A stretch of 64,000 nucleotides of DNA from a virus: IMG/VR virus record IMGVR_UViG_3300032213_003144, positions 32,001 to 96,000 of that record; one strand, written 5' to 3'. Position 1 is the stretch's first letter. The number at the start of each line of letters is the position of its first letter. This document shows positions 22,839-39,231 of this stretch, piece after piece. Made by a program: the position numbers and the translations under genes. A model generated the notes under the pieces. It had not been told where the DNA came from, did not search any database, and worked only from the letters and a program-made list of their open reading frames with translations.

Positions 22839-23182
22839 TGGCACATTACGCATTCTTGGATGAAAACAACATTGTCACCGAAGTAATTGTCGGTCGCAAC
22901 GAAGACGAAGTAGTTGACGGAATCTCCGACTGGGAGGAGTACTACGGTTCTCTGCGTGGTCAGAGATGTTTAAGGACTTCTTACAACCACAATATAAGGA
23001 AACAGTTTGCGGGTATTGGCTTTAGTTACAACGAAGAAAGAGACATCTTTATCGCCAACCAGCCATATCCTTCGTGGGTTTTAGATGAAGATTTTGACTG
23101 GGTCCCACCAATCCCGTATCCGTCAAGTGATAGGGGATGTGCTCACTGGAATGAAGAAATAGGTAACTGGGACATTTATTAA
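22838..23182 (+). CDS. Conserved phage protein that follows Gly-rich tail proteins (possible chaperone)
   Basis: MAHYAFLDENNIVTEVIV...TSYN-x-x-IRK-x-FAGIG-x-x-Y...PYPSW-x-L...W-x-PP-x-PYP. Confidence 0.7.
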   Translation: MAHYAFLDENNIVTEVIVGRNEDEVVDGISDWEEYYGSLRGQRCLRTSYNHNIRKQFAGIGFSYNEERDIFIANQPYPSWVLDEDFDWVPPIPYPSSDRGCAHWNEEIGNWDIY

Positions 23183-23220
23183 ATTATAGTAAGTTTAGAC
23201 CAAGACAATAAAGGAGTAAA

Positions 23221-23439
23221 ATGAGCATTTCAACACCAAAGGACCTTACTGGAAATCCAACTTTTATTTATGTAGTCGATGGAGAAGTTGTAGAGATACA
23301 GGTGCTTGAGCCGATACCTTTCAATGAAAGAAGAATTTCCTACCTATCATCGGACCCAAAAATATATGTTCTACCTGGTGGCTACCCAGCCAACCCAAAT
23401 GCACTTCCAAAACCTGGTTCCGCTTACGCCCCAGAATAA
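23221..23439 (+). CDS. Small protein, paralog of 51524..51754
   Basis: FIYVVDGEV...LSSDPKIYVL; AAGGAG RBS. Confidence 0.7.
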   Translation: MSISTPKDLTGNPTFIYVVDGEVVEIQVLEPIPFNERRISYLSSDPKIYVLPGGYPANPNALPKPGSAYAPE

Positions 23440-23482
23440 AAATTTTGAAGATAATGTATAAAAGATTGAAAGTAAGTCGACC

Positions 23483-23725
23483 ATGACCATTAAGACCTGG
23501 AACTATGACGACGACCTGATTCAGCTTATTTCGGAGAAATATCACATCAGCGGCAAATCAGGTGCACAAGCAATGATTGATGCTTGGACGGATATTCGAG
23601 ACGGAAAGCTGATTGAGATATGTATGGAACTCAATATTCCAGAACCACTTGGTTTGATTCACGGATTGAACACCTTTTCGAAAAAGCTGATGGAAAACGA
23701 GAGACTAGAGACAATTAAAGACTAA
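23483..23725 (+). CDS. Hypothetical protein
   Basis: ORF track. Confidence 0.55.
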   Translation: MTIKTWNYDDDLIQLISEKYHISGKSGAQAMIDAWTDIRDGKLIEICMELNIPEPLGLIHGLNTFSKKLMENERLETIKD

Positions 23726-23744
23726 AATATGCGATAATAAGCAC

Positions 23745-23927
23745 ATGCCAATTGCGTTTCCTGCTTCCCCGTCAACGAATGATGAGTTTTCTATCGCTGG
23801 GAAATCCTGGAGCTGGAATGGGTTCCGATGGCAGAGGTTTAAGTCTGCGATAATTGACGGCGGGTTTGCCAATATTGAAATAAGTCTAGGCAACAATGCA
23901 GAGGTCGCTGATGGAGGTGGTGCTTAA
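23745..23927 (+). CDS. Small structural protein
   Basis: FPASP-x-x-ND...GKSWSWNG-x-x-W motif shared with the N-terminus of 29896..30672; DGG motifs. Confidence 0.65.
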   Translation: MPIAFPASPSTNDEFSIAGKSWSWNGFRWQRFKSAIIDGGFANIEISLGNNAEVADGGGA

Positions 23928-26815
23928 TGGCTTATAAGAAGATTCTATTTCGCCGAGACACGGCTGCCGCATGGACATCAGCAAACCCAATTCTTTCTGC
24001 GGGAGAAATAGGACTTGAGTCAGACACCGGGAAAATAAAGCTTGGCAACGGTTCTACGGCCTGGAACTCGCTTACTTATTTCTACGGCTCACTACAGAAT
24101 GCAAACTATGTCCAGTCCTTGGTGGCTGGCACTGGTTTGACAATAACCGGCAACTCTGGTTCTGCGGCCACCCCAACAATCTCGCTTCCTCAATCCGTGG
24201 CTACATCGGCTTCGCCAACCTTTGCTCAAGTTTTGGTTTCAAATCTCCCAAGCGCTGATTCACATGTAGCGACAAAAGCCTACGTAGATGGAATTGCCTC
24301 TTCAATAAACTGGCACGATTTTGTCGTATACGCAACGGCAGCAATTCTTCCTGGTAGTCCAACTTACAGTAATGGCACAAGCGGTGTTGGCGCAACGCTA
24401 ACTGCTACATCAAATGCGCGTCTAATAGTAGATGGACAGAATGCATCTACAGGAAATAGAATCCTTGTCAAAACCCAAGCCGACGCTAAACAAAACGGCA
24501 TCTACGCTGTCACCGCTCAGGGAAGTGTTTCAACTCCATATGTTCTCACAAGAGCTACCGATTTTGACTCTGGTTCAGCCTATGGAAACATAAATGCTGG
24601 CGATGCAATGTATGTTGGTTTTGGTAGCACAAACCAAAGCCAAGCTTTTTTGGTTACAAGTTTTGGAACAGGAACCAACCGAGCCCACATTATTGGTACT
24701 GACGATATTACGTTTACTCAATTTTCCGGTACTGCGACAGTTACTGCCGGCACCGGAATTACAAAAACAGGAAACACTCTTTCGATTGGGCAAAATGTTG
24801 CAACCAGTGCAAGCGTTTCATTTGCTGCGGTAAATGCATATTTAAACGGTGTAGCCGCTAAAGCAGCAGTTCTTGAAACGGCAAGAATGATTGGTGGTCA
24901 GTCATTTGATGGTTCGGCCAATATAGCTATTGGTACATCAGACATAACCGGATTAACCGTAACTGCATCTGAATTAAATAAATTATTCAACGTTGCCACA
25001 ACATCGGCACAGCTTGACTATTTAAACACGGCAAGCGCAAACGTTCAGGTTCAATTAAACGACAAAGCGCCACTATATAATCCAATTTTTACCAATAACA
25101 TCACAGCAACCGGTCAGGGTTACTTCAATCTTGTAGGCAACGTGACTGGAAATGTTTTTGGAAATCTGAGCGGCAATGTAACCGGAAGCGTAGATGGAAG
25201 CACGTCAGGGACACATACTGGCCCTGTTGTAGGAAACGTAACTGGAAACATAACTGGAAGTTCTGGAACCGTCACATCAATTGGGACACACGCAATTGGT
25301 GAACTGTCCAATGTTTCTGCTTCGGTAGCAAGTACTGGGGAGTTCTTGAAGTGGGATGGATTTGAGTGGGTACCAGCTGACCTTATTACTGGTTCAAAGG
25401 CTTCAGGAAAATTCATTAAATGGAATGGCTCTAACTGGGTAGCTGACGTAATTGACCTCAATGCCGATACGGACGGAAACTTTGTAGCTTCCATAAATGC
25501 TGGTACTGGCGTAAGTCTTACAAACGGAACAGCTGCCGAATCCGGGAACCCGACAATAAATATTGGCCAAGCAATTGGTACAACTGATTCTCCATCATTT
25601 GCAAACCTAAGTCTTGGAAATGCACAGGTCAATGCAACAGGTCTTGCCTACAGCAGCGGAACAGGTCTTGCAACCGTGACCGCAGTTGGTCATGGTTTGG
25701 CTGTTGGTGCAAGAATCACAGTTACTGGTGCAACCCAAACTGACTACAACGGAACATTCTCTATATATTCTGTTCCAAACTCTTCAACATTCACATATCA
25801 ACCACTTGTTGGTCCTGGTGCGGCAATTGCATCTGGCTCATACTTGGTTTATGTTGGCGGAGCAATAACACTTGAAGGCTCAACAGACGACGCTTTTGAG
25901 ACAACAATAGTCGCAGTAAACCCAACCGCTGACAGAATAATTTCCCTTCCAAATGCCACAACTCAATTGGTTGGAACAGATACAACCGACACGCTGACAA
26001 ACAAAACTCTCACAAGTCCAACCATTACGGGTATATCTCCAGTAATCACACTTGCTGGAGATTTGAGTGGTTCGGCAACATTGACTAATCTTGGAAACGC
26101 AACACTAACCGCCACAATTGCCGCAGACTCTGTTGCTCTTGGAACCGACACGACTGGTAGTTATGTAGCCAACCTTGTAGAGGGTACTGGTGTAACCATT
26201 ACAGCCAACTCAGGGGAGGGTGCAACCCCAACCATTGCAATTGGGCAGGCAGTCGGAACCTCTTCCTCTGTAAGTTTTAATACAATTACAGTGGCAAACT
26301 TGGTCGTCACCGGAAGTCAGACCTCAACAAGTCAGGCAAACTTGAACGTTGCCGACAGCATAATTACTCTTAACTCAAATGTAACTGGGTCTCCAACACT
26401 TAACGCTGGAGTGGTTGTTGAGCGTGGAACATCTGCAAATGTTGATATTCGATGGAATGAATCTTTGGATAGATGGGAAGCCACAAACGACGGCTCAACC
26501 TATGGAGTAATTGGTCAAGGCGCCAAGATGACCATAAGCGACACCCCTCCTTCTAGTCCTGTTAATGGTGACTTCTGGTTTGAGTCCGACTCAGCAATCA
26601 CTTTTGTTTACTACGATTCCTACTGGATTGAAATTGGTGCATCGGGAATTGGAGCAATAATTAGCTCCACTTCGCCATCAAACCCAGCAAACGGCCAGAT
26701 TTGGTTCAGAAATACAACCAGCGAAACGTTTGTTTATTATGACGGAAACTGGGTTAATGTGGGCGGAAGTAGCTCTGGCAGCAATGAAATTGCGTCTATC
26801 ATGGGAGCGTATTAA
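23927..26815 (+). CDS. Tail fibre protein with Mtd-N / hyaluronidase-N-like N-terminal domain
   Basis: RRDTAAAWTSANPIL-x-x-GEIGLESDT-x-KIKLG-x-G-x-TAWNSL-x-Y; shaft repeats; two C-terminal P-x-x-G(D/Q)-x-WF repeats. Confidence 0.85.
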   Translation: MAYKKILFRRDTAAAWTSANPILSAGEIGLESDTGKIKLGNGSTAWNSLTYFYGSLQNANYVQSLVAGTGLTITGNSGSAATPTISLPQSVATSASPTFAQVLVSNLPSADSHVATKAYVDGIASSINWHDFVVYATAAILPGSPTYSNGTSGVGATLTATSNARLIVDGQNASTGNRILVKTQADAKQNGIYAVTAQGSVSTPYVLTRATDFDSGSAYGNINAGDAMYVGFGSTNQSQAFLVTSFGTGTNRAHIIGTDDITFTQFSGTATVTAGTGITKTGNTLSIGQNVATSASVSFAAVNAYLNGVAAKAAVLETARMIGGQSFDGSANIAIGTSDITGLTVTASELNKLFNVATTSAQLDYLNTASANVQVQLNDKAPLYNPIFTNNITATGQGYFNLVGNVTGNVFGNLSGNVTGSVDGSTSGTHTGPVVGNVTGNITGSSGTVTSIGTHAIGELSNVSASVASTGEFLKWDGFEWVPADLITGSKASGKFIKWNGSNWVADVIDLNADTDGNFVASINAGTGVSLTNGTAAESGNPTINIGQAIGTTDSPSFANLSLGNAQVNATGLAYSSGTGLATVTAVGHGLAVGARITVTGATQTDYNGTFSIYSVPNSSTFTYQPLVGPGAAIASGSYLVYVGGAITLEGSTDDAFETTIVAVNPTADRIISLPNATTQLVGTDTTDTLTNKTLTSPTITGISPVITLAGDLSGSATLTNLGNATLTATIAADSVALGTDTTGSYVANLVEGTGVTITANSGEGATPTIAIGQAVGTSSSVSFNTITVANLVVTGSQTSTSQANLNVADSIITLNSNVTGSPTLNAGVVVERGTSANVDIRWNESLDRWEATNDGSTYGVIGQGAKMTISDTPPSSPVNGDFWFESDSAITFVYYDSYWIEIGASGIGAIISSTSPSNPANGQIWFRNTTSETFVYYDGNWVNVGGSSSGSNEIASIMGAY

Positions 26816-26831
26816 ATGACTGGAGTAATCA

Positions 26832-27137
26832 ATGGCTAATACAGCTAAAACACTTTTTAGGGGGGCGGCAACGACCAATACGGGTACAACCCTGTATACG
26901 GTTCCAGCCCTAACAACAGCTGTTGTCACCAACGTAATAGTCACCAACACATCGTCGACCGATGGTACGTTTACCCTTGCCCTAAACGGTACCGCACTTA
27001 CATCAACCCTAACCATTACTGGCAAGGGTATTTTTACTCTCGATTTGCGCCAAGTTCTTACAGCAACACAAACAATTACTGGTGGGGCGAATGCCACAAG
27101 TATTAACTTCCACATTGCTGGAATGGAGATTGTATAA
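26832..27137 (+). CDS. Small structural beta protein
   Basis: TTLYTVPA-x-TTAVV-x-N-x-x-VTN...HIAG-x-EI. Confidence 0.7.
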   Translation: MANTAKTLFRGAATTNTGTTLYTVPALTTAVVTNVIVTNTSSTDGTFTLALNGTALTSTLTITGKGIFTLDLRQVLTATQTITGGANATSINFHIAGMEIV

Positions 27138-29893
27138 TGGCATCTAATCAGATTCCTGCTGGTCTTACCCCAATAACCCCTGAAGAAGTTCTTTTTGACC
27201 CAGTACAAAAATTAAGAGTTTCTACGCCCCAGGCGTTGATTGACACCGACTTTGAATACGGTACACAGATTTCAAAATGGGAAAACCTCATCACGGTAAA
27301 CAATAGACCGTTCATCTATGACACGGCTGCGCCTATTACCGGCATTACCGCAATTACGATGAGTACATCGTCGAGAACTGTAACAGTATCGCTGCCGAGC
27401 ACTACGGGTATCGCAGTTGGAACACCAATTTCAGTAAGAGACACATTCTTGGCTATTGCCAATGGTAACTACATTGTTGAAGCAGTATCTTCAAACGTTT
27501 CATTTTCGTACACTGCAAAAGCTGTGAACACTGGAACTGTCACATCAATTCTTGACTCCAATAAGACGGTTCTTTATACAGGCGCTCTTTTTACCGGTGC
27601 GGCAATCGGTGGAGCGCCAACGGTTTCGTACGTATCAAACGCAGTAACCGTAACCACAACGGTTCCTCATGGTCTTTCAATTGGCAACGAGGTTGCTATT
27701 ACTGGTGTAACAACAACAGGAACAAACCCTCCAAACGGTTCAAACTTTGTTGCAAGAATCATAAGCGCAACACAGTTTGTTGTTTATGTCCCAGCAACCC
27801 CAACTGGAACATTGACATCTACTTCTGCAGCTGTGTACACATGTCCATCTGGGCTGTTCTTGCATAGACCATTTGACGGCGGTGTTATTTTCACCAACAA
27901 CGGAACATCCAACTACGAGTCAGCGGTTCGACAGACACGTCGTTACTTCCGTTATCAGTCAGGTAAGGGCATTCAGATGTCGTCCGGAACACTGCTCAAG
28001 CCAGACTTGCAACTTGACTCCTTGACATATGCTTCAGGAACAAACTTGGTTACTGTTCAGACAAAGGAAAAGCACAACCTTTACCCAGGTTCAACAATCG
28101 TTGTTTACGGCGCAACAGAAACTGGGTACAACGGAACATTTGTTGTTTACACGATTACTGGTTACAACACCTTTACCTATACCCCAGACTCAACACCGTC
28201 TGCTGCAACAGCTTCTGGTCCGTATTACATAACCGTTTCAAACTGGTATGGAAACGTAAACAGAATCGGTCTATTTGACCAGCAGAACGGTGTATTCTTT
28301 GAGTACGACGGACAAACATTGTGGGCGGTAAAACGTTCATCTACTTTCCAAATTTCAGGAAAAGTGTCAGTTACCTCTGGCGGATGCACGGTTACGCAAA
28401 CAAACGCTGCGTTTCCAACAAGATTCTCAAAGCAACTAGGAATCGGTGACAATATCGTACTAAGAGGTATGTCGTATAGAATTATCGATATTGCAAGCGA
28501 TACATCAATGACCATAAGCCCTGCATTCCGTGGAGCAACATCTGATTACGTTGTTTGTTCAAGAACTGTTGATACAAAAGTTCCACAGTCAGAGTGGAAT
28601 CTTGACAAGTTTGACGGAACGGGTTCTTCTGGTTACAACGTTGACCTTTCAAAGATGCAAATGTTCTACATTGACTACTCTTGGTATGGAGCTGGCTTCA
28701 TCCGTTGGGGCATGCGTGCAACAAACGGAAAAGTAACTTACTGCCACAAGGTTGTGAACAACAACATCAACTCTGAAGCGTACATGCGTTCGGGAAACCT
28801 ACCTGCGCGCTACGAGACAACAGCTCAGCCTCCATTTACAAACTTGGCTGCGTCATTGTCAAACGTTGCAACATCAATGACAGTTGGAAGCACAACAGGG
28901 TTTCCAACAGCTGGAACTCTTGCAATTTTCAATACGGCAACCGGATACGAGTACGTTAACTACACCGGAAAAACAGCAACAACGTTCACTGGATTAACGC
29001 GTCAGCAAACAGGAAACTCATCTCTTGCGATTACGATTGCAGCCAACTCCAACGACGGAACAGTTTCTTCTGCTGCTGGACTCCAGGTCGGTCAGCGCGT
29101 TAACGGAACAGACGTTCCGGACGGAACCTTCATTCAAGCACTTAGCGGAACAAATATCAAGCTGAGTGCCGCAGTAACTGCAGCAAACCCAACTGTAAAC
29201 GTAACCCCAATGGGAACAAATGCCGCTTTGTCTTGGACATACTCAGCAACCAATCCAATTGGTGTTGAACTTGCATTCCCGACATACGCACCATCCATTT
29301 CTCACTGGGGCACATCAGCAATCATGGACGGAAGATACGACGATGATAAATCACTCGTGTTTACGTATGGTTCGGCGACTTCTGTAGTTGTAAACGCTGC
29401 AGCAACAAACTGTTTGCTCGCAATCAGGGTCTCTCCATCAGCGGATAACGGTACGTCTGCAGTATTTGGTGCCCGCGAACTCATCAACAGAATGCAGTTG
29501 GTTCTCAGAAACCTGGATATCACCACGACTACGGCTTCATCAAACCTCTTGGTTACAGTTGTTCTTAACGGAACTCCGTCTACCGGAGCAACTTGGGTCA
29601 AGCCATACACGGTGACATCTTCACTCGCACAGATAGCAGACTACGGTAGCTCCACGGTTACGTTAACTGGTGGTGAAATTACTGGTGGTTTCTTCGTGGG
29701 AACTGGTGCAAACTCGATTGACCTTTCTGCGGTTCGCGACCTTGGCAACTCGGTCTTGGGCGGTGGAACAACATTGAGCAGTCAGGCAATCTACCCAGAT
29801 GGTCCAGATACAGTTCACATTCTTGTACGTAACCTTGGTGCTGCTGCAGCAACAGTGTTTGCCCGTCTTTCATGGACTGAAGCACAGGCCTAA
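27137..29893 (+). CDS. Large virion structural protein (tail-associated)
   Basis: KLRVSTPQALIDTDFEYG, RQTRRYFRYQSGKG, DYSWYGAG-x-IRWG, YMRSGNLPARYE, W-x-EAQA; TVTT-x-x-PHGL beta repeats. Confidence 0.75.
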   Translation: MASNQIPAGLTPITPEEVLFDPVQKLRVSTPQALIDTDFEYGTQISKWENLITVNNRPFIYDTAAPITGITAITMSTSSRTVTVSLPSTTGIAVGTPISVRDTFLAIANGNYIVEAVSSNVSFSYTAKAVNTGTVTSILDSNKTVLYTGALFTGAAIGGAPTVSYVSNAVTVTTTVPHGLSIGNEVAITGVTTTGTNPPNGSNFVARIISATQFVVYVPATPTGTLTSTSAAVYTCPSGLFLHRPFDGGVIFTNNGTSNYESAVRQTRRYFRYQSGKGIQMSSGTLLKPDLQLDSLTYASGTNLVTVQTKEKHNLYPGSTIVVYGATETGYNGTFVVYTITGYNTFTYTPDSTPSAATASGPYYITVSNWYGNVNRIGLFDQQNGVFFEYDGQTLWAVKRSSTFQISGKVSVTSGGCTVTQTNAAFPTRFSKQLGIGDNIVLRGMSYRIIDIASDTSMTISPAFRGATSDYVVCSRTVDTKVPQSEWNLDKFDGTGSSGYNVDLSKMQMFYIDYSWYGAGFIRWGMRATNGKVTYCHKVVNNNINSEAYMRSGNLPARYETTAQPPFTNLAASLSNVATSMTVGSTTGFPTAGTLAIFNTATGYEYVNYTGKTATTFTGLTRQQTGNSSLAITIAANSNDGTVSSAAGLQVGQRVNGTDVPDGTFIQALSGTNIKLSAAVTAANPTVNVTPMGTNAALSWTYSATNPIGVELAFPTYAPSISHWGTSAIMDGRYDDDKSLVFTYGSATSVVVNAAATNCLLAIRVSPSADNGTSAVFGARELINRMQLVLRNLDITTTTASSNLLVTVVLNGTPSTGATWVKPYTVTSSLAQIADYGSSTVTLTGGEITGGFFVGTGANSIDLSAVRDLGNSVLGGGTTLSSQAIYPDGPDTVHILVRNLGAAAATVFARLSWTEAQA

Positions 29894-29895
29894 AT

Positions 29896-30672
29896 ATGCC
29901 AAGTATTGATTTTCCAGCAGGAGCAGCATCAGGGGACCAGCACACAAGCGCCGGCAAGACCTGGACATACAACGGCTCCGGTTGGGTTTTGGTAACGATT
30001 CCAACCGCAATGTTTACTGCTAGTTCTGTCACTGGTACGGCATTGCAAGATGGAACAGTAACTTTGGCAAAAATTGCCTCAGCAACAGCCGGACAAGCTA
30101 TTGTCTACAACTCGTCAAACGTTCCAACAGCAACAACCGTCACAGGAGACGTAACAATTTCTAGTGCTGGCGTTACGGCAATAGCATCTGGCGTGATAGT
30201 CAATGCAGATATCAACGCTTCCGCCGCAATTACTAATACCAAGATTGCTGGGACAGCAGTAACTCTTGCGGATTCTGGAACGGTTACCTCAGCAATGATT
30301 GCTGACTCAACAATAGTTGACGGAGATATAAGTTCATCTGCAGATATTGCTCGCGGAAAGATTGCAGACCTAATCACAAATGCCCAAGGTGCTTCGTATA
30401 CCCTCGTTCTTGCCGACAAAAACAAAGTTGTAGAAATGAATGTTGCTGTAGCAAATAATTTAAGCGTCCCATCAAACACGACTGTTGCATTTCCTATTGG
30501 CACACAAATAATTGTTATCCAAACAGGGGCAGGACAAACAACACTTCTTGGTGATTCTGGCGTAACCATAAATGGAACACCAGGAACAAAACTCCGCGCC
30601 CAGTGGTCTGGCGTGACCCTTATCAAACGAGCGACTAATACGTGGGTTGCACTAGGCGACCTATCGGCATAA
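29896..30672 (+). CDS. Tail fibre adaptor protein
   Basis: VT-x-AKIA / I-x-x-ADI repeats; C-terminal YTLVLAD...FPIGTQI-x-x-x-Q-x-GAGQ-x-T...LRAQWS-x-x-TLIK-x-x-TNTW-x-x-x-GDL domain. Confidence 0.75.
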   Translation: MPSIDFPAGAASGDQHTSAGKTWTYNGSGWVLVTIPTAMFTASSVTGTALQDGTVTLAKIASATAGQAIVYNSSNVPTATTVTGDVTISSAGVTAIASGVIVNADINASAAITNTKIAGTAVTLADSGTVTSAMIADSTIVDGDISSSADIARGKIADLITNAQGASYTLVLADKNKVVEMNVAVANNLSVPSNTTVAFPIGTQIIVIQTGAGQTTLLGDSGVTINGTPGTKLRAQWSGVTLIKRATNTWVALGDLSA

Positions 30673-30675: not shown

Positions 30676-31401
30676 ATGGTTGCACTAAAAGACGTTGGAG
30701 GTAAGGAACCAGGCGCACCAATAAATGTGACCGCCACAAATGGTGCTACTGGAAACGCTATTGTTTCTTTCACTCCAAATGGAACCGGAAAAGGAACCCC
30801 CACATTTCAGGTTCTTTCAAGTGCTGGACACACAGCATCCGGCGCATCTAGCCCCATCACCGTTACCGGCCTAACTGGCGGAACAAGCTATACGTATCAG
30901 GTTAGGTGTGTTTCTAACGGCATCACCGGTCCGTATTCATTGCCGTCGGGAAGTGTTACTTCTGGTTTGGCACCAGGCGCGCCAACTGGTGTTACTGCAA
31001 CGGCAGGCAACGCATTGGCAACAGTTGCATACACTGCTGGTGCCGCTGGAACAACTGCTTCAACATTTACAGCCACCTCAACACCGGGCAGCTTTACTGG
31101 GGTTGGCGCATCTCCGATAACGGTCAGCGGTTTGGCAAACGGAACCCCTTACACATTTACGGTTACCGCATCAAACAGTTTTGGCTCAGCAATATCGGCT
31201 GCATCAAACTCCGTAACTCCAGTAGCGCCCCCATACTTTCCTCCTTACTTCCCACCCTTTTTCCCACCGTTCTTCCCTCCGTTCTTTCCTCCATTCTTTC
31301 CACCGTTCTTCCCTCCATTCTTTCCGCCATTTTTCCCTCCATTCTTCCCTCCATTCTTCCCTCCTTTCTTCCCGCCAGGTTTTGGTCCAGGTTTCAAATA
31401 G
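30676..31401 (+). CDS. Two-FN3-domain protein with a C-terminal (PPxF)n repeat tail
   Basis: PGAP-x-x-VTAT...SPITV-x-GL-x-x-GT-x-YT(Y/F)-x-V occurs twice; ends PPYF x2, PPFF x10, PPGF, GPGFK. Confidence 0.9.
   Translation: MVALKDVGGKEPGAPINVTATNGATGNAIVSFTPNGTGKGTPTFQVLSSAGHTASGASSPITVTGLTGGTSYTYQVRCVSNGITGPYSLPSGSVTSGLAPGAPTGVTATAGNALATVAYTAGAAGTTASTFTATSTPGSFTGVGASPITVSGLANGTPYTFTVTASNSFGSAISAASNSVTPVAPPYFPPYFPPFFPPFFPPFFPPFFPPFFPPFFPPFFPPFFPPFFPPFFPPGFGPGFK
31228..31395 (+). repeat. 12-bp-unit tandem repeat encoding PPYF x2, PPFF x10, PPGF, GPGF
   Basis: Read codon by codon; all four Pro codons and both Phe codons are used. Confidence 0.97.
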
Positions 31402-31415: not shown

Positions 31416-32039
31416 ATGAATTACCGAGAACTGGTTTTTGATTTAGAAAGCCTGCCGTCTGCCGACCCATCAAATATAGTCATCAAAGAAAATTTTATAA
31501 GCATAGAACACCTTGCAGAAATAATGGATTACTGTAAATCTGCAGAGTACTGGGAGTCAAGAAGTCCACTAGGTTCTGACAGTATTCATATGCCAGAATT
31601 CATTCGAAAGAATTCTCCAAAAGTGTTCTCAATCATGCAGCAATACGTGGATAACGTTCAGTATGAAGTTGAATATAAATTTGGTAGGAAACTTGAAAAA
31701 ACACAACCAGGAATACGAAAATGGTATCCAGGCGAGTATCAGGATTTGCATGCTGATGGAGAGACTTCTAGTGGGTGGCCTGGATATAACTACATCGTAG
31801 ATTACGGGTCAATAATTTATTTGAACGAAGAGTACGAAGGCGGAGAGCTATTTTTCCCAAAATATGACCTATGTATTAAACCAAATCCAGGAACTCTGGT
31901 TTTCTTCCCATCAACAAACATGTATGCTCACGGCGTTACGGAAATTATGGATGGGGTAAGGTACACATCCCCACATTTTTGGACACCAGTAAAGCACAGG
32001 CTATTAATGGAAATGGCTGTAATGGATGAGCAAAAATAA
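31416..32039 (+). CDS. 2OG-Fe(II) oxygenase, prolyl-4-hydroxylase-like
   Basis: HAD...YLNEEYEGGELFF...FFPS...HGV...G-x-RY. Confidence 0.92.
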   Translation: MNYRELVFDLESLPSADPSNIVIKENFISIEHLAEIMDYCKSAEYWESRSPLGSDSIHMPEFIRKNSPKVFSIMQQYVDNVQYEVEYKFGRKLEKTQPGIRKWYPGEYQDLHADGETSSGWPGYNYIVDYGSIIYLNEEYEGGELFFPKYDLCIKPNPGTLVFFPSTNMYAHGVTEIMDGVRYTSPHFWTPVKHRLLMEMAVMDEQK

Positions 32040-32781
32040 ACATTTATATTTTTTGCATATACCAAAGACGTCTGGAACAAAGATGCAGCACGACATACTC
32101 GCTGCATCAAAAAGTATAAATAAAGCAAAAGTTTACATACCAGGTGACTTCGAGTTTGTATTTAATCCAGAAATAGCCAATTCGTACAATATAATTTGCG
32201 GGCACTTCGCTCGCAATCCGATAGATGTTATCAATGGACTTACGACCTTCTCGATGATAAGGGAGCCATTTGACCAGTATTTAAGTTTGGCTAAATACGC
32301 AGCCGCACAATCCGGTGTTAAGTTTAGTGAAGAATTTTTAGATTTATTCCTTAGTAATGACAATGAATTCAACACACAGTTCGAAGGTATGTCTGGATGC
32401 GACAACCCTCAGTCTTGTTTTTTATTTTCAAAAATTGCATGTATTGAACATCAATCACCCGTAGATTCGTATGGTAATTTACCTGAATCAAAATATCAAT
32501 CATTTTTTGTGGAAAAGCCAACGTCTTATTCTGAGTTAAGCGAAAGATTGGACGGAATAATGATAGGGACTACAGAAAACAGGGCCCTCCTCGTTGAGAG
32601 AGTAAACAATATTCTATTTAATTTATATGGGATTAAAATGGCGCATAGTAATTCGGTAATCAATTCCACGCCGAAGCCGACATTCAAAATAAGCAAAAAA
32701 CACAAATCGAAGATACTCGAAAAAACCGAAATAGACATCGAGTTGTACACAAAAATAAAAGAACTAGAAAATGAACTTTAG
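32026..32781 (+). CDS. Sulfotransferase-like protein
   Basis: FLHIPKTSGT (5'-PSB loop), GHF, REPFDQYLS (3'-PB), D-x-ELY. Confidence 0.8.
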   Translation: MSKNKHLYFLHIPKTSGTKMQHDILAASKSINKAKVYIPGDFEFVFNPEIANSYNIICGHFARNPIDVINGLTTFSMIREPFDQYLSLAKYAAAQSGVKFSEEFLDLFLSNDNEFNTQFEGMSGCDNPQSCFLFSKIACIEHQSPVDSYGNLPESKYQSFFVEKPTSYSELSERLDGIMIGTTENRALLVERVNNILFNLYGIKMAHSNSVINSTPKPTFKISKKHKSKILEKTEIDIELYTKIKELENEL

Positions 32782-33511
32782 AAAACTATATCACCTGCAC
32801 ATACCAAGGACATCTGGGTTTGGAATTGCTAATGCATTAGAGAAAACATTTTCCAAGCAGGGTTTTGGTCTCCACAAACCAACACAAGATGTAATTTTTT
32901 CCGAAGAGTCATATACTCACTTTCCATACGTATCTGGTCATTTTGCAAAAAATCCGATTGCAAATAATGCAGACGCTTTTGAAGTTTTTTCAATAGTCAG
33001 AGACCCAGTGGAACACTACGTGAGCATTGCCGCACATGTCTCCGAAAGCACCGATTTTGAAATGTCAAACGAATTCATGGACGATTTCATGTATGGAAAT
33101 GTAACCCCTTTTGGGGCCAACGAACTATTCTCAAATTCGGGGAATATACAGTCAAAAATGCTATTTTGCAGGATTGCTTTTGTGGATAAGTCTTTTGTTT
33201 CGCTCAGAGATAGTGATGTTGTAAACGAGAAAAATATGGTTTTTATAGAAAATGACATGCCAAACGAAAATGAAATAAAAGACTTAATTGGTTCCATGAA
33301 TCTATTCGCCCTACCAGATAGGGGGATGGCGATTGATTGGCTCAAAGCAAACGTGCTTAAGTCGCATGGTTTTTCTTTAGATAAATCAATTTATTACATA
33401 ACGAATTGCTCGAAAAAAAACGGGTTTAAACCAGACATAACCCACATAAAGGAAATAAAACGGCGCTCAGAAATAGACGAATACCTATATAGGTTAGTAA
33501 AAGAACGATAA
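32771..33511 (+). CDS. Sulfotransferase-like protein (paralog)
   Basis: HLHIPRTSG, SGHF, RDPVEHYVS, DEYLY. Confidence 0.75.
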   Translation: MNFRKLYHLHIPRTSGFGIANALEKTFSKQGFGLHKPTQDVIFSEESYTHFPYVSGHFAKNPIANNADAFEVFSIVRDPVEHYVSIAAHVSESTDFEMSNEFMDDFMYGNVTPFGANELFSNSGNIQSKMLFCRIAFVDKSFVSLRDSDVVNEKNMVFIENDMPNENEIKDLIGSMNLFALPDRGMAIDWLKANVLKSHGFSLDKSIYYITNCSKKNGFKPDITHIKEIKRRSEIDEYLYRLVKER

Positions 33512-33529
33512 TTTGATAGTGTTGCAAGT

Positions 33530-34156
33530 ATGTCGCCAACCGAAAAATCACCATGGAATATACAGCCAGGACACTTTGGGGATGGTCCAGAGAACATACA
33601 CGTCTTTGAAAATTTTATAGATGAAGAAGATTTAAGGGTTGTTCAAGATTTCTGCCCAACAATAAACGAGTGGAATAACTCAAAAGAGAGCGTTTACGCC
33701 GAAGATGGAACATGCCTTTATAACGCTGATTACTGGAATGACAGGCAATGCAGCAGTGATATTCTACAAAGACTCTCCATGCCGGTTTTTAAAATAATTG
33801 ATAAATATATTACAAAGATGCAGTTAGAGCTTGAGAGAATCTACGACCTACGGTTATCTCCACGCCCACCGGTCATCATGAAGTGGAGGCCAGGAATTGA
33901 ACAGCGGCCTCACGCCGACAAGCAACTCAATAATGGTGAACCAAATGCATTCGTTGACTACGATTTGAATTCTTTGTTTTACTACAACGACGATTTTGAA
34001 GGCGGAGAACTTTATTACCCGCAACACGACTTGACCATAAAACCGAAACCCGGATTGGCTATTGCTCACCCAGGAGACGTTAATTATTTACATGGAGTCA
34101 CCTTGGTTACCAAGGGGTATAGGTACACAACACCATCGTTTTACACTGTGCTGTAA
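33530..34156 (+). CDS. 2OG-Fe(II) oxygenase, prolyl-4-hydroxylase-like
   Basis: HAD...YYNDDFEGGELYY...HGV...G-x-RY. Confidence 0.92.
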   Translation: MSPTEKSPWNIQPGHFGDGPENIHVFENFIDEEDLRVVQDFCPTINEWNNSKESVYAEDGTCLYNADYWNDRQCSSDILQRLSMPVFKIIDKYITKMQLELERIYDLRLSPRPPVIMKWRPGIEQRPHADKQLNNGEPNAFVDYDLNSLFYYNDDFEGGELYYPQHDLTIKPKPGLAIAHPGDVNYLHGVTLVTKGYRYTTPSFYTVL

Positions 34157-34159
34157 GCA

Positions 34160-34687
34160 ATGATTTTAATTCAAAAGAATTTTATAAAACCAAAAGAATC
34201 TGACCTAATCCTTGATTCGATTAAGGAGATAGGTTTGCCGCCCAACCTTGCAGAAGATGACCACTCAACCGGCTATTACAGCAAATCCGCCTTACTAGAG
34301 TCCGACGTCTTCGCATACGGAATATTCAATGAGGTATGCGAGCGAGTTTTGGGTTTAGCAGAAAAAGTATTTGATTTAAGCCTAGAACTAGACCAAGCCA
34401 CCCTCATTAAGGTCATTCCTGGAAATATAAGCGAAGAACACGCGGATAGTCAAAACCTTGACGGAACCCCCAAAACGGGCTGTAGTAATTTTCGTATTTC
34501 GGCAGTTGCGTACCTAAATGATGATTTCACTGGTGGGGACCTAGTTTTCCCGACAATGGAACACAGATACAAACCAGTCCCAGGGGATTGTGTAATATTC
34601 CCAAGTCATTTACAATATAGCCACTATGTGGATAGCGTCTTTAGCGGGGAACGAATAAGTTTGGCAATGTGGTTCTCCGGAGTATGA
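34160..34687 (+). CDS. 2OG-Fe(II) oxygenase, prolyl-4-hydroxylase-like
   Basis: HAD...YLNDDFTGGDL...FPS...H-x-V...GERIS. Confidence 0.92.
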   Translation: MILIQKNFIKPKESDLILDSIKEIGLPPNLAEDDHSTGYYSKSALLESDVFAYGIFNEVCERVLGLAEKVFDLSLELDQATLIKVIPGNISEEHADSQNLDGTPKTGCSNFRISAVAYLNDDFTGGDLVFPTMEHRYKPVPGDCVIFPSHLQYSHYVDSVFSGERISLAMWFSGV

Positions 34688-34694
34688 TGAGACA

Positions 34695-35426
34695 ATGAGA
34701 AACATTGATGTCGAGTACATAGGTGACCCCAAAGCTGGGTTTTTGGTTTATAGAAACATACTTACCGAAGACCTTAGAATTCCAGAACGCCTAGAAGCAA
34801 CAATAGGCGACAGCACCACTCCTCCTTATTCGTGGATGCAGGCCCTTGTCGGTGATGGTCAAGTAATGAAGGATTACAGGGATTGCGTTGACTGCAAGAT
34901 GAGCCCGGCACATTTTCAAAACTGTCCAGAGCAATACTCAGAACTCATCAACATATACAACGACACTGTCGTTGGATTGACTGCTTGCTTGCAAGATTAC
35001 GAATCCAGGTACAACATACGTATGGACTTCATGGAAGCAATCAACTACGTCCGATACAACGAGGGTCAGCACTTCAATGTTCACGCCGACCACGGTTTTT
35101 CATACGTCTGCACCGTGTCTTCGGTCATGTATCTTAACGATGATTACGACGGCGGCGAGCTTTGGTTTCCGTACTTAGATGTTACGTTTAAGCCTAAATA
35201 CGGAGACATAGTTTTATTTCCGTCAACATTCATCTATTCTCATGCATCCAAACCTGTCACCAGGGGAACCAAGTATGCAGCTGTAACCATGTTTGACTAC
35301 AACGACAGGTTCCATAAACAGTGGAAGGGCTACGGCAAGAACATAGACGGAACCGACGCTGAATACGGACCCGGAATCGTTAGCCCAACGGCAAACCAAG
35401 TCGAAAGATTTGTATTCAAAAAATGA
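34695..35426 (+). CDS. 2OG-Fe(II) oxygenase, prolyl-4-hydroxylase-like
   Basis: HADHGFSY...YLNDDYDGGEL...FPS...HAS-x-PV-x-x-GTKY (Lys as 2OG ligand, as in P4Hs). Confidence 0.92.
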   Translation: MRNIDVEYIGDPKAGFLVYRNILTEDLRIPERLEATIGDSTTPPYSWMQALVGDGQVMKDYRDCVDCKMSPAHFQNCPEQYSELINIYNDTVVGLTACLQDYESRYNIRMDFMEAINYVRYNEGQHFNVHADHGFSYVCTVSSVMYLNDDYDGGELWFPYLDVTFKPKYGDIVLFPSTFIYSHASKPVTRGTKYAAVTMFDYNDRFHKQWKGYGKNIDGTDAEYGPGIVSPTANQVERFVFKK

Positions 35427-36124
35427 CAAAATTATTTCTTAAACAAACACATCAGAGCCCACCACTCATACAACAGTCGAGGATTAAGCGTGACTGGATG
35501 GACGCTACTTATAATAAACACGCCTATCAATGTCTTCCAATGACGGTAGCCAATGTGTATGGATGGGAGTTGATTCTCGAAGAGGACCTAGTTGTTCAAT
35601 GGGATGGCGGGAATACTCCACCGACAATTATCTCTGGGGAGACGACCTCCTCTGGTCGGGTTCAGGCAATATCTTCGATAATCGGAATGATTTCAATAAA
35701 TATGGGCTGGGTAATAAATACAGAAGAGGGATACAACACCTGGATTTCTGGTTCGCCGAATTACTTCTTGGACGGAGCGGTTCCATTAACTGCAACAATT
35801 CCTAGTCATTGGTGGCCAGACGAATCCCAGATGAATTGGAAGATAACCAAAATTGGAGAGCCGGTAACATTTGCGGCGGGAACCCCATTTTGTTTTTTTA
35901 ATATCTACGACAACTCGATACTCGAGAATGTTGAGATTGTTCGGTCAAGTCTTTGGAGCGACCCTGAGCTCGTTGCGTCTCGCATGAAATACGGGGAAAT
36001 GAAGGCAAAAAATAATGTTGAAAAGCCGTGGACGTGGACAAAAGGTATTCGTACAGGTCTTGACGCGGACGGTAAACAAATAGGGCCTACATTCACTGGT
36101 CTGCCAAAACTAGCCAATCCATAG
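35423..36124 (+). CDS. DUF6065-like protein
   Basis: RDWMD...HAY-x-CLPM-x-x-AN-x-x-GW...G-x-PN...W...MNWKIT. Confidence 0.75.
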   Translation: MTKLFLKQTHQSPPLIQQSRIKRDWMDATYNKHAYQCLPMTVANVYGWELILEEDLVVQWDGGNTPPTIISGETTSSGRVQAISSIIGMISINMGWVINTEEGYNTWISGSPNYFLDGAVPLTATIPSHWWPDESQMNWKITKIGEPVTFAAGTPFCFFNIYDNSILENVEIVRSSLWSDPELVASRMKYGEMKAKNNVEKPWTWTKGIRTGLDADGKQIGPTFTGLPKLANP

Positions 36125-36169
36125 TGTAAAATATGGGTACTTGTCCAAAACTAGTACGACGGAGCAAAC

Positions 36170-36406
36170 ATGAAATTCGAGTCTTCATTTTCAACGCAAG
36201 AGAAGAAACTTATATATCAGCGCACGCTCAAAGACCTGGAAAGACAGCTCATGGAGAGACTTCTTCAAGAGGGCTTTGACCCAGAGACATTTGATGCCGC
36301 AACGTTTGTCCCAAGTAACGACAGCCACGGCATGATTCAGGGACATAGATTTATTCTTGATTTCTTGGCAAAAATAGGAACTGTCAAATCAAGACTGGAA
36401 GAGTAG
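36170..36406 (+). CDS. Small helical hypothetical protein
   Basis: GGAG RBS; LE-x-x-L...GFDP motif. Confidence 0.65.
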   Translation: MKFESSFSTQEKKLIYQRTLKDLERQLMERLLQEGFDPETFDAATFVPSNDSHGMIQGHRFILDFLAKIGTVKSRLEE

Positions 36407-36415
36407 TATCCACTT

Positions 36416-36649
36416 ATGGCACTTTCTGCAGGACAACTAGCCAAAGCAAAGGCTGAAGCGATTCAAATTCTTGAGTACTCAATCTACACCCTTGCTTTTT
36501 CTCTTGGTATTCAAGACGAAGACCTTCTACCAGACATGGAAAATCCTATAGACATGTCATTGGCGGAGAATAGTTCTCTCGCTGCACAGTACGATGCATA
36601 CGAATGTCTCAAACTGCAATTGGCGGCCCTGGCAAGATTACAGAGTTAG
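36416..36649 (+). CDS. Small helical hypothetical protein
   Basis: TAGTAT-N6-ATG; LEYSI...LGI motif. Confidence 0.65.
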   Translation: MALSAGQLAKAKAEAIQILEYSIYTLAFSLGIQDEDLLPDMENPIDMSLAENSSLAAQYDAYECLKLQLAALARLQS

Positions 36650-36658
36650 CAGGTTGTT

Positions 36659-36970
36659 GTGAGGATAACTCCAGATATTCCGGCAACAATTTCAATTGTA
36701 GAAACTGCCATGGAATCAGGAAGATACGAAATATGTCCTGACATTGAGCCTGAATACCCAAATATTCAGGAGCCAATGCAAAACCCAAACAGAGATAGTC
36801 AGGTCCCTCGTTGGAATCCTAGGTTATTTTCTTTTGAGCTTCCAGATGGGGCTGCATTTTTTTGTGACTTACTTCAATCAAGTGATGCTCAATCACCATG
36901 GGAATCAACACATCAGGGTGATTTTACGAAAAATGAAACAGTAGAGGAGGCTTTCCAGGATGAGAACTAG
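36659..36970 (+). CDS. Hypothetical protein
   Basis: ORF track; lies within the operon. Confidence 0.55.
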   Translation: MRITPDIPATISIVETAMESGRYEICPDIEPEYPNIQEPMQNPNRDSQVPRWNPRLFSFELPDGAAFFCDLLQSSDAQSPWESTHQGDFTKNETVEEAFQDEN

Positions 36971-37283
36971 AAGTATTGGCGAGGGAAACCTTTATAACGC
37001 TGAATCAGACATGTCGTACCATGAGCAAAAATTAGCTGTTACTTCATATTTAGTTGGGTTTGACCCATCAGACATTGATTCAATGAGAATCGACTATGCC
37101 GTTGTTAAACTGCGAAAACTATGGAACTACTCCAGCGATGTGCGCGGAGACGTCGCTAATTCAACATTTTCTTCAAACAAGATTCATACGTTTTTATCAA
37201 AACAAAATGTCGCGCTAACAGAAGGTGCAAGATACGCGTACTGGAATTACTGTCTTGCAAGGGGTGTGAAAAATGGACAATAG
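36960..37283 (+). CDS. Hypothetical protein
   Basis: GAGGAGG upstream; HEQKL...VGFDP motif. Confidence 0.6.
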   Translation: MRTRSIGEGNLYNAESDMSYHEQKLAVTSYLVGFDPSDIDSMRIDYAVVKLRKLWNYSSDVRGDVANSTFSSNKIHTFLSKQNVALTEGARYAYWNYCLARGVKNGQ

Positions 37284-38031
37284 ACAACTAAGAACAGCTA
37301 TGGCCTCCAGGCTGATTGGGAAAAACCCAATTGAGTCAATTTTCCCCGACAGCACAGAGGAAATACTTTCTCTAATATCAGAAATGGCATCAAATGTCAC
37401 CGAATGGAGAAAGAGCGTAGAAGGACTTACTATGAGTATTGCCGCCCGAGGCGGTAGTGATGGGTGCTGGTACATAGACCTTATTGCAAATTTTCAAACC
37501 GGATTCAAGGAACTTCTTGCAAGGTCCGATGATGCCCTGGCTAGTTACGCCTTTGCAAAATTACCTCAAAAAGCTTTATTTTTTACCCCAGACGCAATGA
37601 CAACAATGTATTCGCTTAAACACGAACATCCAGAAACAGAAATACATTTTGTTAATACCCAGTCGCTTTACAATTATGAAACGTTTGCAAGAGATTCATC
37701 GGTTGTCGGGGGACCAGATTCCTATAGAGACATCGATTACAGTGTTGTCGAAAGAGACGAGATTGGTTCTGGAGATGCTTCAGGTTATGATTTCATCCAG
37801 GTGGCAGCGTGGGATGCAGTTTACGATTTAGAAATACTCAACAAGTGTGTTGATGCTCTATCCAGTAATGGAATTCTCTACGTAATGTCAACTAATCATT
37901 CAGGAAAGATTTATAGAGACGATGCAAAAATGCATCCATACTACGGTGCTCACGAATTGTTGAATAGCAAAGATGGCTATACGTATCACAACTCAGACAC
38001 ATATGGGTTCACGGTATTTACTAAAAAATAA
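37273..38031 (+). CDS. Divergent class I methyltransferase-like protein
   Basis: YDFIQV...VDALSSNGILYV...YGFTVFTK resembles the C-terminal half of the Rossmann MTase fold; motif I is not canonical. Confidence 0.5.
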   Translation: MDNRQLRTAMASRLIGKNPIESIFPDSTEEILSLISEMASNVTEWRKSVEGLTMSIAARGGSDGCWYIDLIANFQTGFKELLARSDDALASYAFAKLPQKALFFTPDAMTTMYSLKHEHPETEIHFVNTQSLYNYETFARDSSVVGGPDSYRDIDYSVVERDEIGSGDASGYDFIQVAAWDAVYDLEILNKCVDALSSNGILYVMSTNHSGKIYRDDAKMHPYYGAHELLNSKDGYTYHNSDTYGFTVFTKK

Positions 38032-38036
38032 CGTTT

Positions 38037-39167
38037 CTACCTACAGGTATATCTTTCAAAGTCCATACCCTTGCGACGCATTACGTACTGCCAGAGATTA
38101 AATTTTCTAGACATAAATGCGCCCATGCATGACAAAAGGTAGAACTCCCACATTTTTCTAAATCGCTCGTCATAATTTGGGAGGTTTTCCCAATTTGATG
38201 TTACGTTTTTGTACCATTCCGCCAGAGTTTTTGAATAGTCCATGCCAAAGTTGTGCACATCTTCAATCACCCAATTTGGTTCTGCTGCTGCGGTGAATTG
38301 CGAAACCGATGGAAGGATTCCGCCAGGGAATATATATCTGTCATAGAACGGGTCAGCATCATGTCGTGCTCGAGTTGAGCCAATAAGGTGATGAACCATT
38401 ATTCCCTTGGGTTCTAATTGCTCATCACACTTATCAAAAAATAGTTTTAGATTTTTGGGCCCGACATGTTCCATCATTCCAATTGAAACAATCCGGTCAA
38501 ATTTGCCGAACTGTCCATCAAGGTCCTGGTATGTGAGTTGATGAATTTCAATCCCAAGGGGCTCGCATCTCTTGGTCGCGGTAGATATTTGCTTATCCAC
38601 AGGGGTAATCCCAACTCCAGTGATACCATACTTTTTTGCCGCATATTCAAGGAACCCACCCCAGCCGCACCCAATGTCCAAAACCCTCATCCCCGGCTTT
38701 AATTTTAGTTTTTTACAAATAAGGTCCATCTTCGCAATTTGTGCATCTTCCAAATTGTCTGCTTTTTGCCAATAGCCACACGAATACATCATGTAGTCAT
38801 CAAGCATCAGCTCAAAAAGGTCATTGCCAATCCCATAATGGAACTCCGCATTTTTTGGTGAACGACTTCTGTTCTGACGGTTAGCAATTCTTGACCATGC
38901 AGCCGCAATCGCAATACTTGGGCTCATCGGTATTTGTTTGGCCAAATCAATATTGGTAAAACGCGTAAGCATTTCGTCAACCTTTTCACACGACCACCAA
39001 CCATCCACGTAACCCTCTGCTAACCCAAGTAGTCTCTGGTCCATAAGCCTGTCCCATATACGTTCATCGTGGACTTGTATTGAGTACGGCTCGGGTCCGT
39101 TGATTGGGATTCCGGCCTGTGCGAATAGTTTTGTAAAGAGTTTGGATGATTTTTTTGACATATCCAA
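38037..39167 (-). CDS. cfa: Cyclopropane-fatty-acyl-phospholipid synthase
   Basis: HYGIGNDLF..MLD..M-x-YSCGYW, LEDAQ-x-AKMDLICKKL, VLDIGCGWGG, FDRIVSIGMMEHVG, YIFPGG, RF-x-x-MWEFYL. Confidence 0.95.
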   Translation of the reverse strand: MDMSKKSSKLFTKLFAQAGIPINGPEPYSIQVHDERIWDRLMDQRLLGLAEGYVDGWWSCEKVDEMLTRFTNIDLAKQIPMSPSIAIAAAWSRIANRQNRSRSPKNAEFHYGIGNDLFELMLDDYMMYSCGYWQKADNLEDAQIAKMDLICKKLKLKPGMRVLDIGCGWGGFLEYAAKKYGITGVGITPVDKQISTATKRCEPLGIEIHQLTYQDLDGQFGKFDRIVSIGMMEHVGPKNLKLFFDKCDEQLEPKGIMVHHLIGSTRARHDADPFYDRYIFPGGILPSVSQFTAAAEPNWVIEDVHNFGMDYSKTLAEWYKNVTSNWENLPNYDERFRKMWEFYLLSCMGAFMSRKFNLWQYVMRRKGMDFERYTCR

Positions 39168-39213
39168 ATCCTAGCATGGTAGCAAAGCGCAAAAATATTA
39201 AAAACAACCCCTG

Positions 39214-39231
39214 TGCTATGATTTTTGTATG
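39214..39231 (+). promoter_or_regulatory. Extended -10 leaderless promoter, divergent from a TGcTACCAT element in front of cfa
   Basis: TGcTATGAT-ttttgt-ATG. Confidence 0.6.

Follow-up and report, generated by a model that had tools for sequence, protein, structure and literature searches.

A proline–phenylalanine repeat tail on a phage protein encoded between fibre genes and an island of predicted 2-oxoglutarate oxygenase genes

What keeps a tail of ten consecutive Pro-Pro-Phe-Phe units intact at the end of a phage protein, and what might such a tail do? The question is raised by a 64,000-nucleotide stretch of viral DNA, hereafter the window, which comprises bases 32001-96000 of the 170,425-bp IMG/VR record IMGVR_UViG_3300032213_003144 (completeness 100% by CheckV). 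An open reading frame (ORF) at positions 30676-31401 of the window, on the plus strand, encodes a protein of 241 residues consisting of a short conserved N-terminal peptide, two fn3 domains and the Pro/Phe repeat tail. It is the last gene of an upstream fibre cluster, and genes for predicted 2-oxoglutarate (2OG)-Fe(II) oxygenases follow it. As to function, we tentatively place at slightly under an even chance the reading that the protein belongs to the virion, is associated with its fibres and ends in a free, extended Pro/Phe rod that the neighbouring oxygenases hydroxylate.

The sequence of the tail is (PPYF)2 (PPFF)10 PPGF GPGF K. The position and content given in an initial annotation of this DNA were correct on re-reading the ORF, except that its count of ten units applies to positions 31252-31371 and not to the whole span of 31228-31401, which also holds the two PPYF units and the end cap. 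Analysis with TRF described the tail DNA as 12.2 copies of a 12-nucleotide period with 81% matches. Codon use in the tail is mixed (CCA 10, CCT 9, CCG 5, CCC 2; TTC 16, TTT 7), but the amino acid pattern is exact, as the annotation had stated: every difference among the ten PPFF units falls at a third codon position. A degenerate DNA pattern for (PPFF)3 matched the 170-kb genome eight times in the forward direction, far above chance, with no reverse match and none for a reversed-pattern control.

The variation among the units indicates how the repeat has been kept. The ten PPFF units differ pairwise at a mean of 2.13 of four synonymous sites, and only three of the 45 pairs are identical, just one of them adjacent. 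Under random codon choice from the genome's own usage, the expected difference is 2.19. Because the observed and expected values are so close, the units are at synonymous saturation, and nothing points to DNA duplication in the recent past. Orthologues with the G-P-G-F-K end, fetched from IMG/VR, contained 8, 10 or 11 PPFF units. In 14 distinct orthologous 8-unit tails, 52 nucleotides were variable, of which 50 were at third positions; the remaining two lay in the single variable codon of the end cap (Gly/Pro/Ser). Across 44 successive Pro/Tyr/Phe codons, the residue was constant in all 14 tails and the third position was polymorphic in every one. Whole units are gained and lost, which means that slippage or recombination does occur, but the products that persist are all in frame and letter-perfect. 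Purifying selection on the tail protein is therefore as strongly supported as comparative sequence allows. The annotation's proposal of an old repeat under protein-level selection stood up to the comparison of unit number and of synonymous and non-synonymous change that it had suggested.

The same data bear on whether the repeat could be a DNA-level artefact, that is, a repeat made by slippage, a non-coding repeat, or one expressed from the opposite strand. Antisense frames are indeed open across the repeat (ORFs of 89 and 50 residues), and the orthologues differ in unit number, so that gain and loss of units takes place. However, variation is limited to third positions of the plus frame, both within the window and among orthologues, and these are first and second positions of the antisense frames. 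Moreover, the plus frame runs on from fn3 domains that have thousands of homologues, the PPFF units are at synonymous equilibrium, and the trace of duplication amounts to one identical adjacent pair at most. We consider an artefact of this kind scarcely conceivable. The antisense (WREE)n frame, whose expression the annotation had named as grounds for abandoning its proposal, was rejected, as the synonymous pattern picks the plus frame only.

A frameshifted or degenerate tail in a homologue, also named in the annotation as contrary evidence, was encountered in a single case. In P0001, the closest homologue in the databases (62% identical), which is known from one Logan contig only, the called frame gives a scrambled tail. 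In its DNA (L205:598-604), a run of C inside the repeat is one base short, and the original frame still encodes a perfect repeat, FFPP...PPQFNPGFK, followed by a stop. The tail is therefore not degenerate, and the frameshift is likely to have arisen in assembly or, failing that, very recently in the phage.

We used the degenerate (PPFF)3 pattern against IMG/VR and matched more than 119 contigs; with loci fetched later, the family set contains at least 116 distinct complete repeat proteins. Among the matches listed, the 116 distinct proteins carry 5 to 46 units (median 15), always in frame. The fourth position of the unit is Phe in 1331 of 1331 units, the third is Phe in 75% and Tyr in 21%, and 53 of the 116 proteins share the terminal F-K. 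Selection acts residue by residue on Pro-Pro, an aromatic residue (Phe or Tyr) and an invariant Phe, and leaves the number of units free to vary.

Outside this set, the repeat was rarely encountered. The tail region and protein had no match in 50,697 deposited phage genomes using megablast, blastn and tblastn, in which the low-complexity filter may hide the repeat, and no Pfam or PHROG family corresponds to the module. The literature on PPFF repeats in phages or hydroxyproline in phage fibres yielded no description of the repeat. A search of the ESM Atlas with the tail gave no usable match, and a profile search of 1.84 billion proteins returned only giant multi-fn3 proteins matched via their fn3 domains, which is uninformative on the tail. 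Scanning 185,579 bacterial and archaeal species genomes with the pattern revealed 22 stretches, 15 of which were short and matched by chance, in a different frame or context. The hallmarks of the family were seen in seven repeat ORFs, which occupy six of the stretches and lie on four contigs of metagenome-assembled genomes, some together with the same oxygenases; these contigs are probably binned phage DNA.

Runs in which the region recurs come from about a dozen studies and are metagenomes of lake-water or freshwater origin. Repeat-bearing contigs from lake metatranscriptomes and metagenomes, which derive from many phages, pile up on the repeat. One lake RNA library contains relatives of the fn3 part and of ox1, the first oxygenase gene downstream; its contigs show neither strand nor level and were not used as evidence of expression. 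The phage is T4-like, with a 918-residue structural protein about 45% identical to virion proteins of S-PM2 and S-RSM4; psbA is absent from the 170-kb genome. Judged by these comparisons, the repeat is an undescribed module of uncultured freshwater T4-like phages. On contigs L069, L160, L163-L165, L174, L049, L063 and L112, two repeat-tail genes lie a few kilobases apart, and association of the tails of the different proteins with each other is a possibility.

The architecture of the homologues is informative about where the repeat may sit. On its N-terminal side are one to four fn3 domains, a domain of 52-85 residues, or a large multi-domain protein. On its C-terminal side, four patterns occur: K or G-P-G-F-K only, Cys-rich knots of 8-48 residues, further fn3 domains, and self-removing domains. 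Where further fn3 domains follow, the repeat is an internal linker; in the short class, it exceeds half of the protein length. Across these sequence contexts, the repeat is a portable module.

Peptidase_S74 and intein-like domains are known to cut themselves off, and both types were found after the repeat. In one homologue (L045, 1082-1762, minus strand), the repeat ends in ...PPAF-K and an S74 domain begins at the very next residue, at profile position 1 (Pfam, E 3.6e-11). This domain has the Ser-x4-Lys dyad, S123 and K128, and numerous tail-fibre, spike and baseplate families have C-termini that match that of the protein. The junction of this homologue, K-S-D-V-R-D-K, recurs as a loose end in a lake RNA-library contig. 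A Hint-like domain follows the repeat in 13 loci by eye, 11 of which were aligned (Table 1). Single-sequence Pfam matches of these domains were below cut-off; the profile built from the 11 matches 2LWY, a solved bacterial intein-like domain (E 6.2e-10), and mini-inteins. Most have an N-terminal Cys, absent in L099, L119 and L120, and several end in His-Asn-Lys. Because both domain types self-cleave, the mature homologues would end in the repeat, presumably the same kind of end that 53 of the 116 proteins among the matches listed encode directly. The window protein stops after F-K and contains neither a Peptidase_S74 domain nor a Hint or bacterial intein-like C-terminal domain.

S74 domains occur in homotrimeric fibres of the endosialidase type, which are attached by their N-terminus. 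By analogy, the S74 homologue suggests that the repeat may be part of a trimer and may lie distally. The comparison has its limits, since L045 is the one family member in which an S74 domain and its Ser/Lys dyad adjoin the repeat, and the shaft ahead of an S74 chaperone is normally a triple beta-helix, not a Pro/Phe repeat. The N-terminal peptide, with the consensus K-D-S-G-G-K-x-P, is conserved among relatives irrespective of the number of fn3 domains, which would fit docking to the virion by the N-terminus. We propose that the window protein is a small fibre-associated virion protein with an N-terminal docking peptide, two fn3 domains and a non-globular (PP[F/Y]F)n C-terminal shaft, in which the rod would most likely be the free, distal C-terminus of the mature protein.

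A rod in that position might also be less a passive spacer than chiefly an aromatic adhesin at the distal end, with affinity for hydrophobic or carbohydrate surfaces, whether on the host or on particles, in either modification state. This would be in keeping with the N-terminal attachment of S74 fibres, by which the L045 repeat would become the distal tip after cleavage, with the conserved N-terminal peptide, and with the predominance of the repeat in the short class. However, many homologues have a Cys-rich knot or fn3 domains beyond the repeat, which is then a stalk and not a tip, and we judge an adhesin improbable.

The architecture is still harder to reconcile with another suggestion of the initial annotation, that the tail is a multi-core precursor resembling those of ribosomally synthesized and post-translationally modified peptides, from which PPFF units would be excised, and perhaps oxidised, to small peptides. 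In favour of such a precursor, the annotation pointed to PPFF in known cyclic peptides. Peptide-modifying dioxygenases adjoin the gene, and cyanophage arrays of this kind have been proposed to make metabolites (PMC2938197). Nevertheless, the units abut without spacers, recognition sites or cleavage sites, and the gene, which lies in a fibre cluster, joins the repeat to folded fn3 domains. Homologues have the repeat between domains or ahead of S74, intein-like or Cys-knot domains, its unit number ranges from 5 to 46 among the matches listed, and the island genes scanned include no protease or macrocyclase family. The suggestion was not supported, and we reject it as very improbable.

Structure prediction, a further check named in the annotation, was performed with AlphaFold2 (AF2) using a 12-row alignment. 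Two beta-sandwich domains were predicted with pLDDT >90. Residues 185-241 were without secondary structure according to DSSP, at a low-confidence pLDDT of 54-59. The first domain matches PF00041 with 41.5 bits, against a gathering cut-off of 25; the second has predicted strands at residues 104-173, and residues 93-180 match PHROG 1696. Pro-Pro pairs make alpha or beta structure improbable, and the tail is extended and probably polyproline-II (PPII)-like. If PPII-like, the 57-residue rod would span approximately 17-18 nm, based on a rise of about 3.1 Å per residue. A trimer prediction using three copies of residues 93-241 scored 0.00, was run without controls, and is evidence neither way. Eukaryotic ligands with Pro motifs (WW PPxY, EVH1 FPPPP) were dropped as candidates, as the motifs misfit and the context is prokaryotic.

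The link between the tail and the oxygenases was evaluated from gene order. The ox1 gene starts 14 nucleotides past the stop codon of the tail gene and opens an island of about 20 kb (31416-51272). Among the matches listed, 83 of 119 pattern-seeded loci have an oxygenase gene, the nearest one lying downstream in 83 of 83. Of the 84 loci having at least 2 kb of downstream DNA, 61 have this oxygenase gene no more than 1.5 kb away. In a reverse test, homologues of DUF6065, the protein encoded after the fourth oxygenase gene (63-96% identical), served as seeds, blind to the repeat. A repeat gene was present in 46 of 47 such loci with at least 5 kb upstream, always upstream and on the same strand.

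Individual partners were followed using an orthologue criterion of at least 40% identity and at least 70% coverage, in loci with at least 5 kb downstream. An orthologue of ox4 was present in 40 of 50 such loci. In the K-ending class, orthologues of ox2 and DUF6065 were present in 11 and 9 of 12 loci, respectively, and both are mainly tied to this class; ox1 and the sulfotransferase-like genes are limited to close relatives. The association thus persists although the intervening genes and the architecture of the repeat protein change. Against deposited phages, ox4 had no match above 35% identity and ox2 had partial matches only; DUF6065 had no homologue in the 50,697 deposited phage genomes.

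Several of these enzymes resemble prolyl 4-hydroxylases (P4Hs). The best solved matches of ox1 are a PKHD-type hydroxylase and P4Hs, with a weak match to the chlorovirus P4H 5c5t. That of ox4 is the P4H of Bacillus anthracis (E 3.2e-6), and ox4 retains H-A-D (H-x-D), the distal His and the 2OG-binding Lys (G-x-K). Since ox1 lies 14 nucleotides after the stop, the oxygenase island spans 20 kb and the synteny holds in both directions, the idea of a modified rod gains support from its context. The neighbouring P4H-like oxygenases may hydroxylate prolines of the rod, a step that the gene content makes plausible at a level somewhere between doubtful and nearly even. Hydroxylation, the most attractive candidate mechanism, would stiffen and solubilise an otherwise very hydrophobic rod.

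A more elaborate proposal is that the tail is the dedicated substrate of a phage multi-enzyme pathway. Several prolyl or other hydroxylases would take part in it with a hydroxyproline-type N-acetylglucosamine (GlcNAc) transferase, and sulfotransferases and DUF6065 might do so too. The outcome would be an aromatic fibre tip bearing many hydroxyl or glycan groups, so that a bacteriophage would display a biopolymer akin to extensins or mussel adhesives. We consider this possible, though less likely than not.

The main rival of the hydroxylated rod is an unmodified structural linker, stalk or self-association element beside an unrelated auxiliary-metabolic or secondary-metabolite cassette in a hyperplastic region, which we hold to be possible but well short of even. 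A number of observations weigh for it and against a modified rod. Hyperplasticity is known for the genome region that follows the fibre genes. The large proteins in which the repeat is an internal linker are mostly without adjacent oxygenases. All of the synteny comes from one broad uncultured lineage, so that shared descent could account for much of it, and the module occurs in no cultured phage among the 50,697 deposited genomes. The genomes of Syn9, S-PM2 and S-RIM44 are without a PPxF repeat, and Syn9 has an array of ten dioxygenases at the equivalent place, after its fibre-assembly genes; because Syn9 has the array without the repeat, such arrays do not require a PPxF substrate. The lipid and redox genes of the island (desaturase, CMAS, glutathione peroxidase) do not fit protein modification. 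PPII geometry is itself an assumption, AF2 confidence being low in the tail. Published readings of the arrays are DNA repair, 2OG turnover and metabolite synthesis (PMC3037559, PMC2938197), and virions of PBCV-1, which has the best-known viral P4H, were without detected hydroxyproline (PMC7019647).

Other observations weigh against the unmodified linker. The association is two-way (83 of 83 nearest downstream among the matches listed, and 46 of 47 in the reverse test), it outlasts changes in intervening genes and architecture, and just 14 nucleotides separate the tail gene from the first oxygenase. A second PPxF protein is encoded at the opposite border of the island. Finally, a free tail exposing roughly 40 Phe residues would hardly stay soluble unless it were modified or buried.

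Known systems resemble a hydroxylated rod in part. Pro-rich, low-complexity extended segments of collagen and plant extensins are hydroxylated by P4H-family enzymes. The tail differs from both in having no Gly every third residue and no Ser-Pro(n) blocks, and half of its residues are aromatic, a composition that to our knowledge none of these families shares. Because Gly does not recur every third residue, a collagen triple helix is excluded: the period of the tail is four residues, no Gly-X-Y pattern is present, there is no Gly before the end cap, and a (GXY)6 scan of the genome's ORFs gave no match in the tail protein. The chlorovirus PBCV-1 likewise encodes a small P4H, the solved viral enzyme that ox1 weakly matches; however, it is a eukaryotic giant virus with other proline-rich repeat motifs, whereas here a Pro/Phe repeat on a phage fibre protein adjoins about a dozen oxygenases.

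A PF11397 gene of the island belongs to what we take to be the Gnt1 family. Its overlap with a P4H-type gene recalls the Skp1 hydroxyproline-GlcNAc pathway of protists (PhyA and Gnt1; PMC3515798, PMC11570480). That pathway modifies one Pro in one cytoplasmic protein, and the PF11397 gene here has no relative among solved structures by sequence. Bacterial operons have been predicted to combine a beta-hydroxylase, dioxygenases of the PhyH type and sulfotransferases with a collagen-like or tail-collar protein on which these enzymes would act (PMC2938197). They share with the island the logic of modifying enzymes encoded beside a repetitive structural protein, but their substrates are Gly-X-Y collagen-like or the tail-collar proteins of T4 short fibres, while Gly does not recur periodically in the tail and the island's sulfotransferases are weakly assigned.

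Cyanophage Syn9 is alike in gene order, with many unrelated 2OG dioxygenases in tandem directly behind the fibre genes (PMC2938197). Beside the Syn9 array, Iyer et al. 2010 (PMC2938197) noted a protein that combines a dUTPase-like fold and a conserved Cys, to which DUF6065, with an invariant Cys and a weakly dUTPase-like model, is a parallel. That array was proposed to be metabolite-making, not virion-protein-modifying (PMC2938197). Syn9 differs in having tryptophan halogenases and no PPxF repeat, and ox4, ox2 and DUF6065 of the window are without close orthologues in deposited phages. Just before the array, Syn9 gp38/gp39 (L228 344-2328) are Gly-rich and annotated as 'tail fiber assembly'; a different low-complexity fibre protein is in the place of the Pro/Phe-tail gene.

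If the proposed reading is correct, phage appendages would contain a widespread structural module that has gone undescribed and whose residues are selected with unusual strictness. The tandem 2OG-dioxygenase arrays that aquatic T4-like phages carry, and whose role has been debated since Syn9 was sequenced, would gain a candidate substrate. Phage biology would also gain its first case of a virion protein that is hydroxylated or glycosylated after translation. A Pro/Phe rod that varies in length by four-residue steps could be of interest as a biomaterial or spacer.

Table 1. Features of the tail gene and its surroundings (window positions) and the homologous loci with an intein-like domain
Feature	Position	Strand	Basis or remark
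Fibre/virion-structural gene cluster: Mtd_N fibre protein, 918-aa structural protein, 258-aa minor-tail-like protein	17424-30672	+	
N-terminal peptide, consensus K-D-S-G-G-K-x-P	30676-30714	+	Alignment; candidate virion-docking end
fn3 domain 1, aa 14-91	30715-30948	+	Pfam PF00041, E 1.6e-10
fn3-like domain 2, about aa 98-181	30967-31218	+	AF2 and PHROG 1696
PPYF x2, start of repeat	31228-31251	+	After conserved junction S-N-S-V-T-P-V-A
(PPFF)10, ten 12-nt units	31252-31371	+	Only synonymous third-position differences
End cap PPGF-GPGF-K and stop	31372-31401	+	
ox1, 2OG-Fe(II) oxygenase	31416-32039	+	PF13640, E 4.9e-8; H-A-D motif
Two paralogues of about 250 aa, weakly sulfotransferase-like	32026-33511	+	PHROG 3347, E 8.5e-5
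ox2, oxygenase	33530-34156	+	PF13640, 23.2 bits, below 27-bit cut-off
ox3, oxygenase	34160-34687	+	PF13640, E 1.6e-11
ox4, oxygenase, most constant partner	34695-35426	+	PF13640, above cut-off
DUF6065 protein	35423-36124	+	PF19541, E 1.2e-44
CMAS-type methyltransferase	38037-39167	-	
Aspartyl/asparaginyl beta-hydroxylase family protein	39380-40090	+	PF05118, E 1.2e-18
Seven further 2OG oxygenase genes	41080-47394	both	Six PF13640-type, one PF13759-type
Glutathione peroxidase	47397-48020	-	
Two PF13640 oxygenases flanking PF11397 'Glycosyltransferase (GlcNAc)' gene (49669-50610)	49189-51272	-	Far end of island
Second fn3 protein, A-P-P-T/S-F x4 between Cys-rich segments	51776-52795	-	
Intein-like domains of homologues	C-terminal 150-185 aa		L042, L052, L063, L070, L074, L075, L094, L099, L119, L120, L123

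The surroundings of the tail gene are summarized in Table 1. Within the fibre cluster, a 962-residue fibre protein with an Mtd_N (major tropism determinant N-terminal) domain is encoded at 23927-26815. All ten PF13640 matches of the 170-kb genome fall within 31797-50936 of the window, and ox1, ox3 and ox4 are above the family's 27-bit cut-off. Per-ORF Pfam scans of 31416-51272 add further oxygenases; the island also encodes a PhyH dioxygenase and a fatty-acid desaturase. The paralogues after ox1 have an invariant H-I-P-x-T-S-G and R...S, but no Pfam match even at E 5; their profile matched a heparan-sulfate 6-O-sulfotransferase marginally (E 0.008). The PF19541 match of the DUF6065 protein scored 153 bits, against a cut-off of 26.6. 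Its invariant Cys is Cys37, and its AF2 model has a pLDDT of 67. A fold search of the PDB with this model gave weak dUTPase-like rows only (E about 2e-3, TM 0.3-0.6), on which the protein may be called weakly dUTPase-like.

At the far end of the island, the overlap between the PF11397 gene and an oxygenase gene lies within 49669-51272. The second fn3-PPxF gene, at the island's other border, is convergent with the tail gene and has baseplate genes beyond it; its product resembles the family class with fn3, repeat and Cys-knot. Scans for promoters, terminators and T4 late promoters gave chance-level counts and are uninformative on co-transcription. Outside the window, at genome positions 111872-113950 and 141632-142900, Pro-rich ORFs contain stretches of the P-G-M-P-P and P-P-G-Q types; these two could be other candidate hydroxylase substrates.

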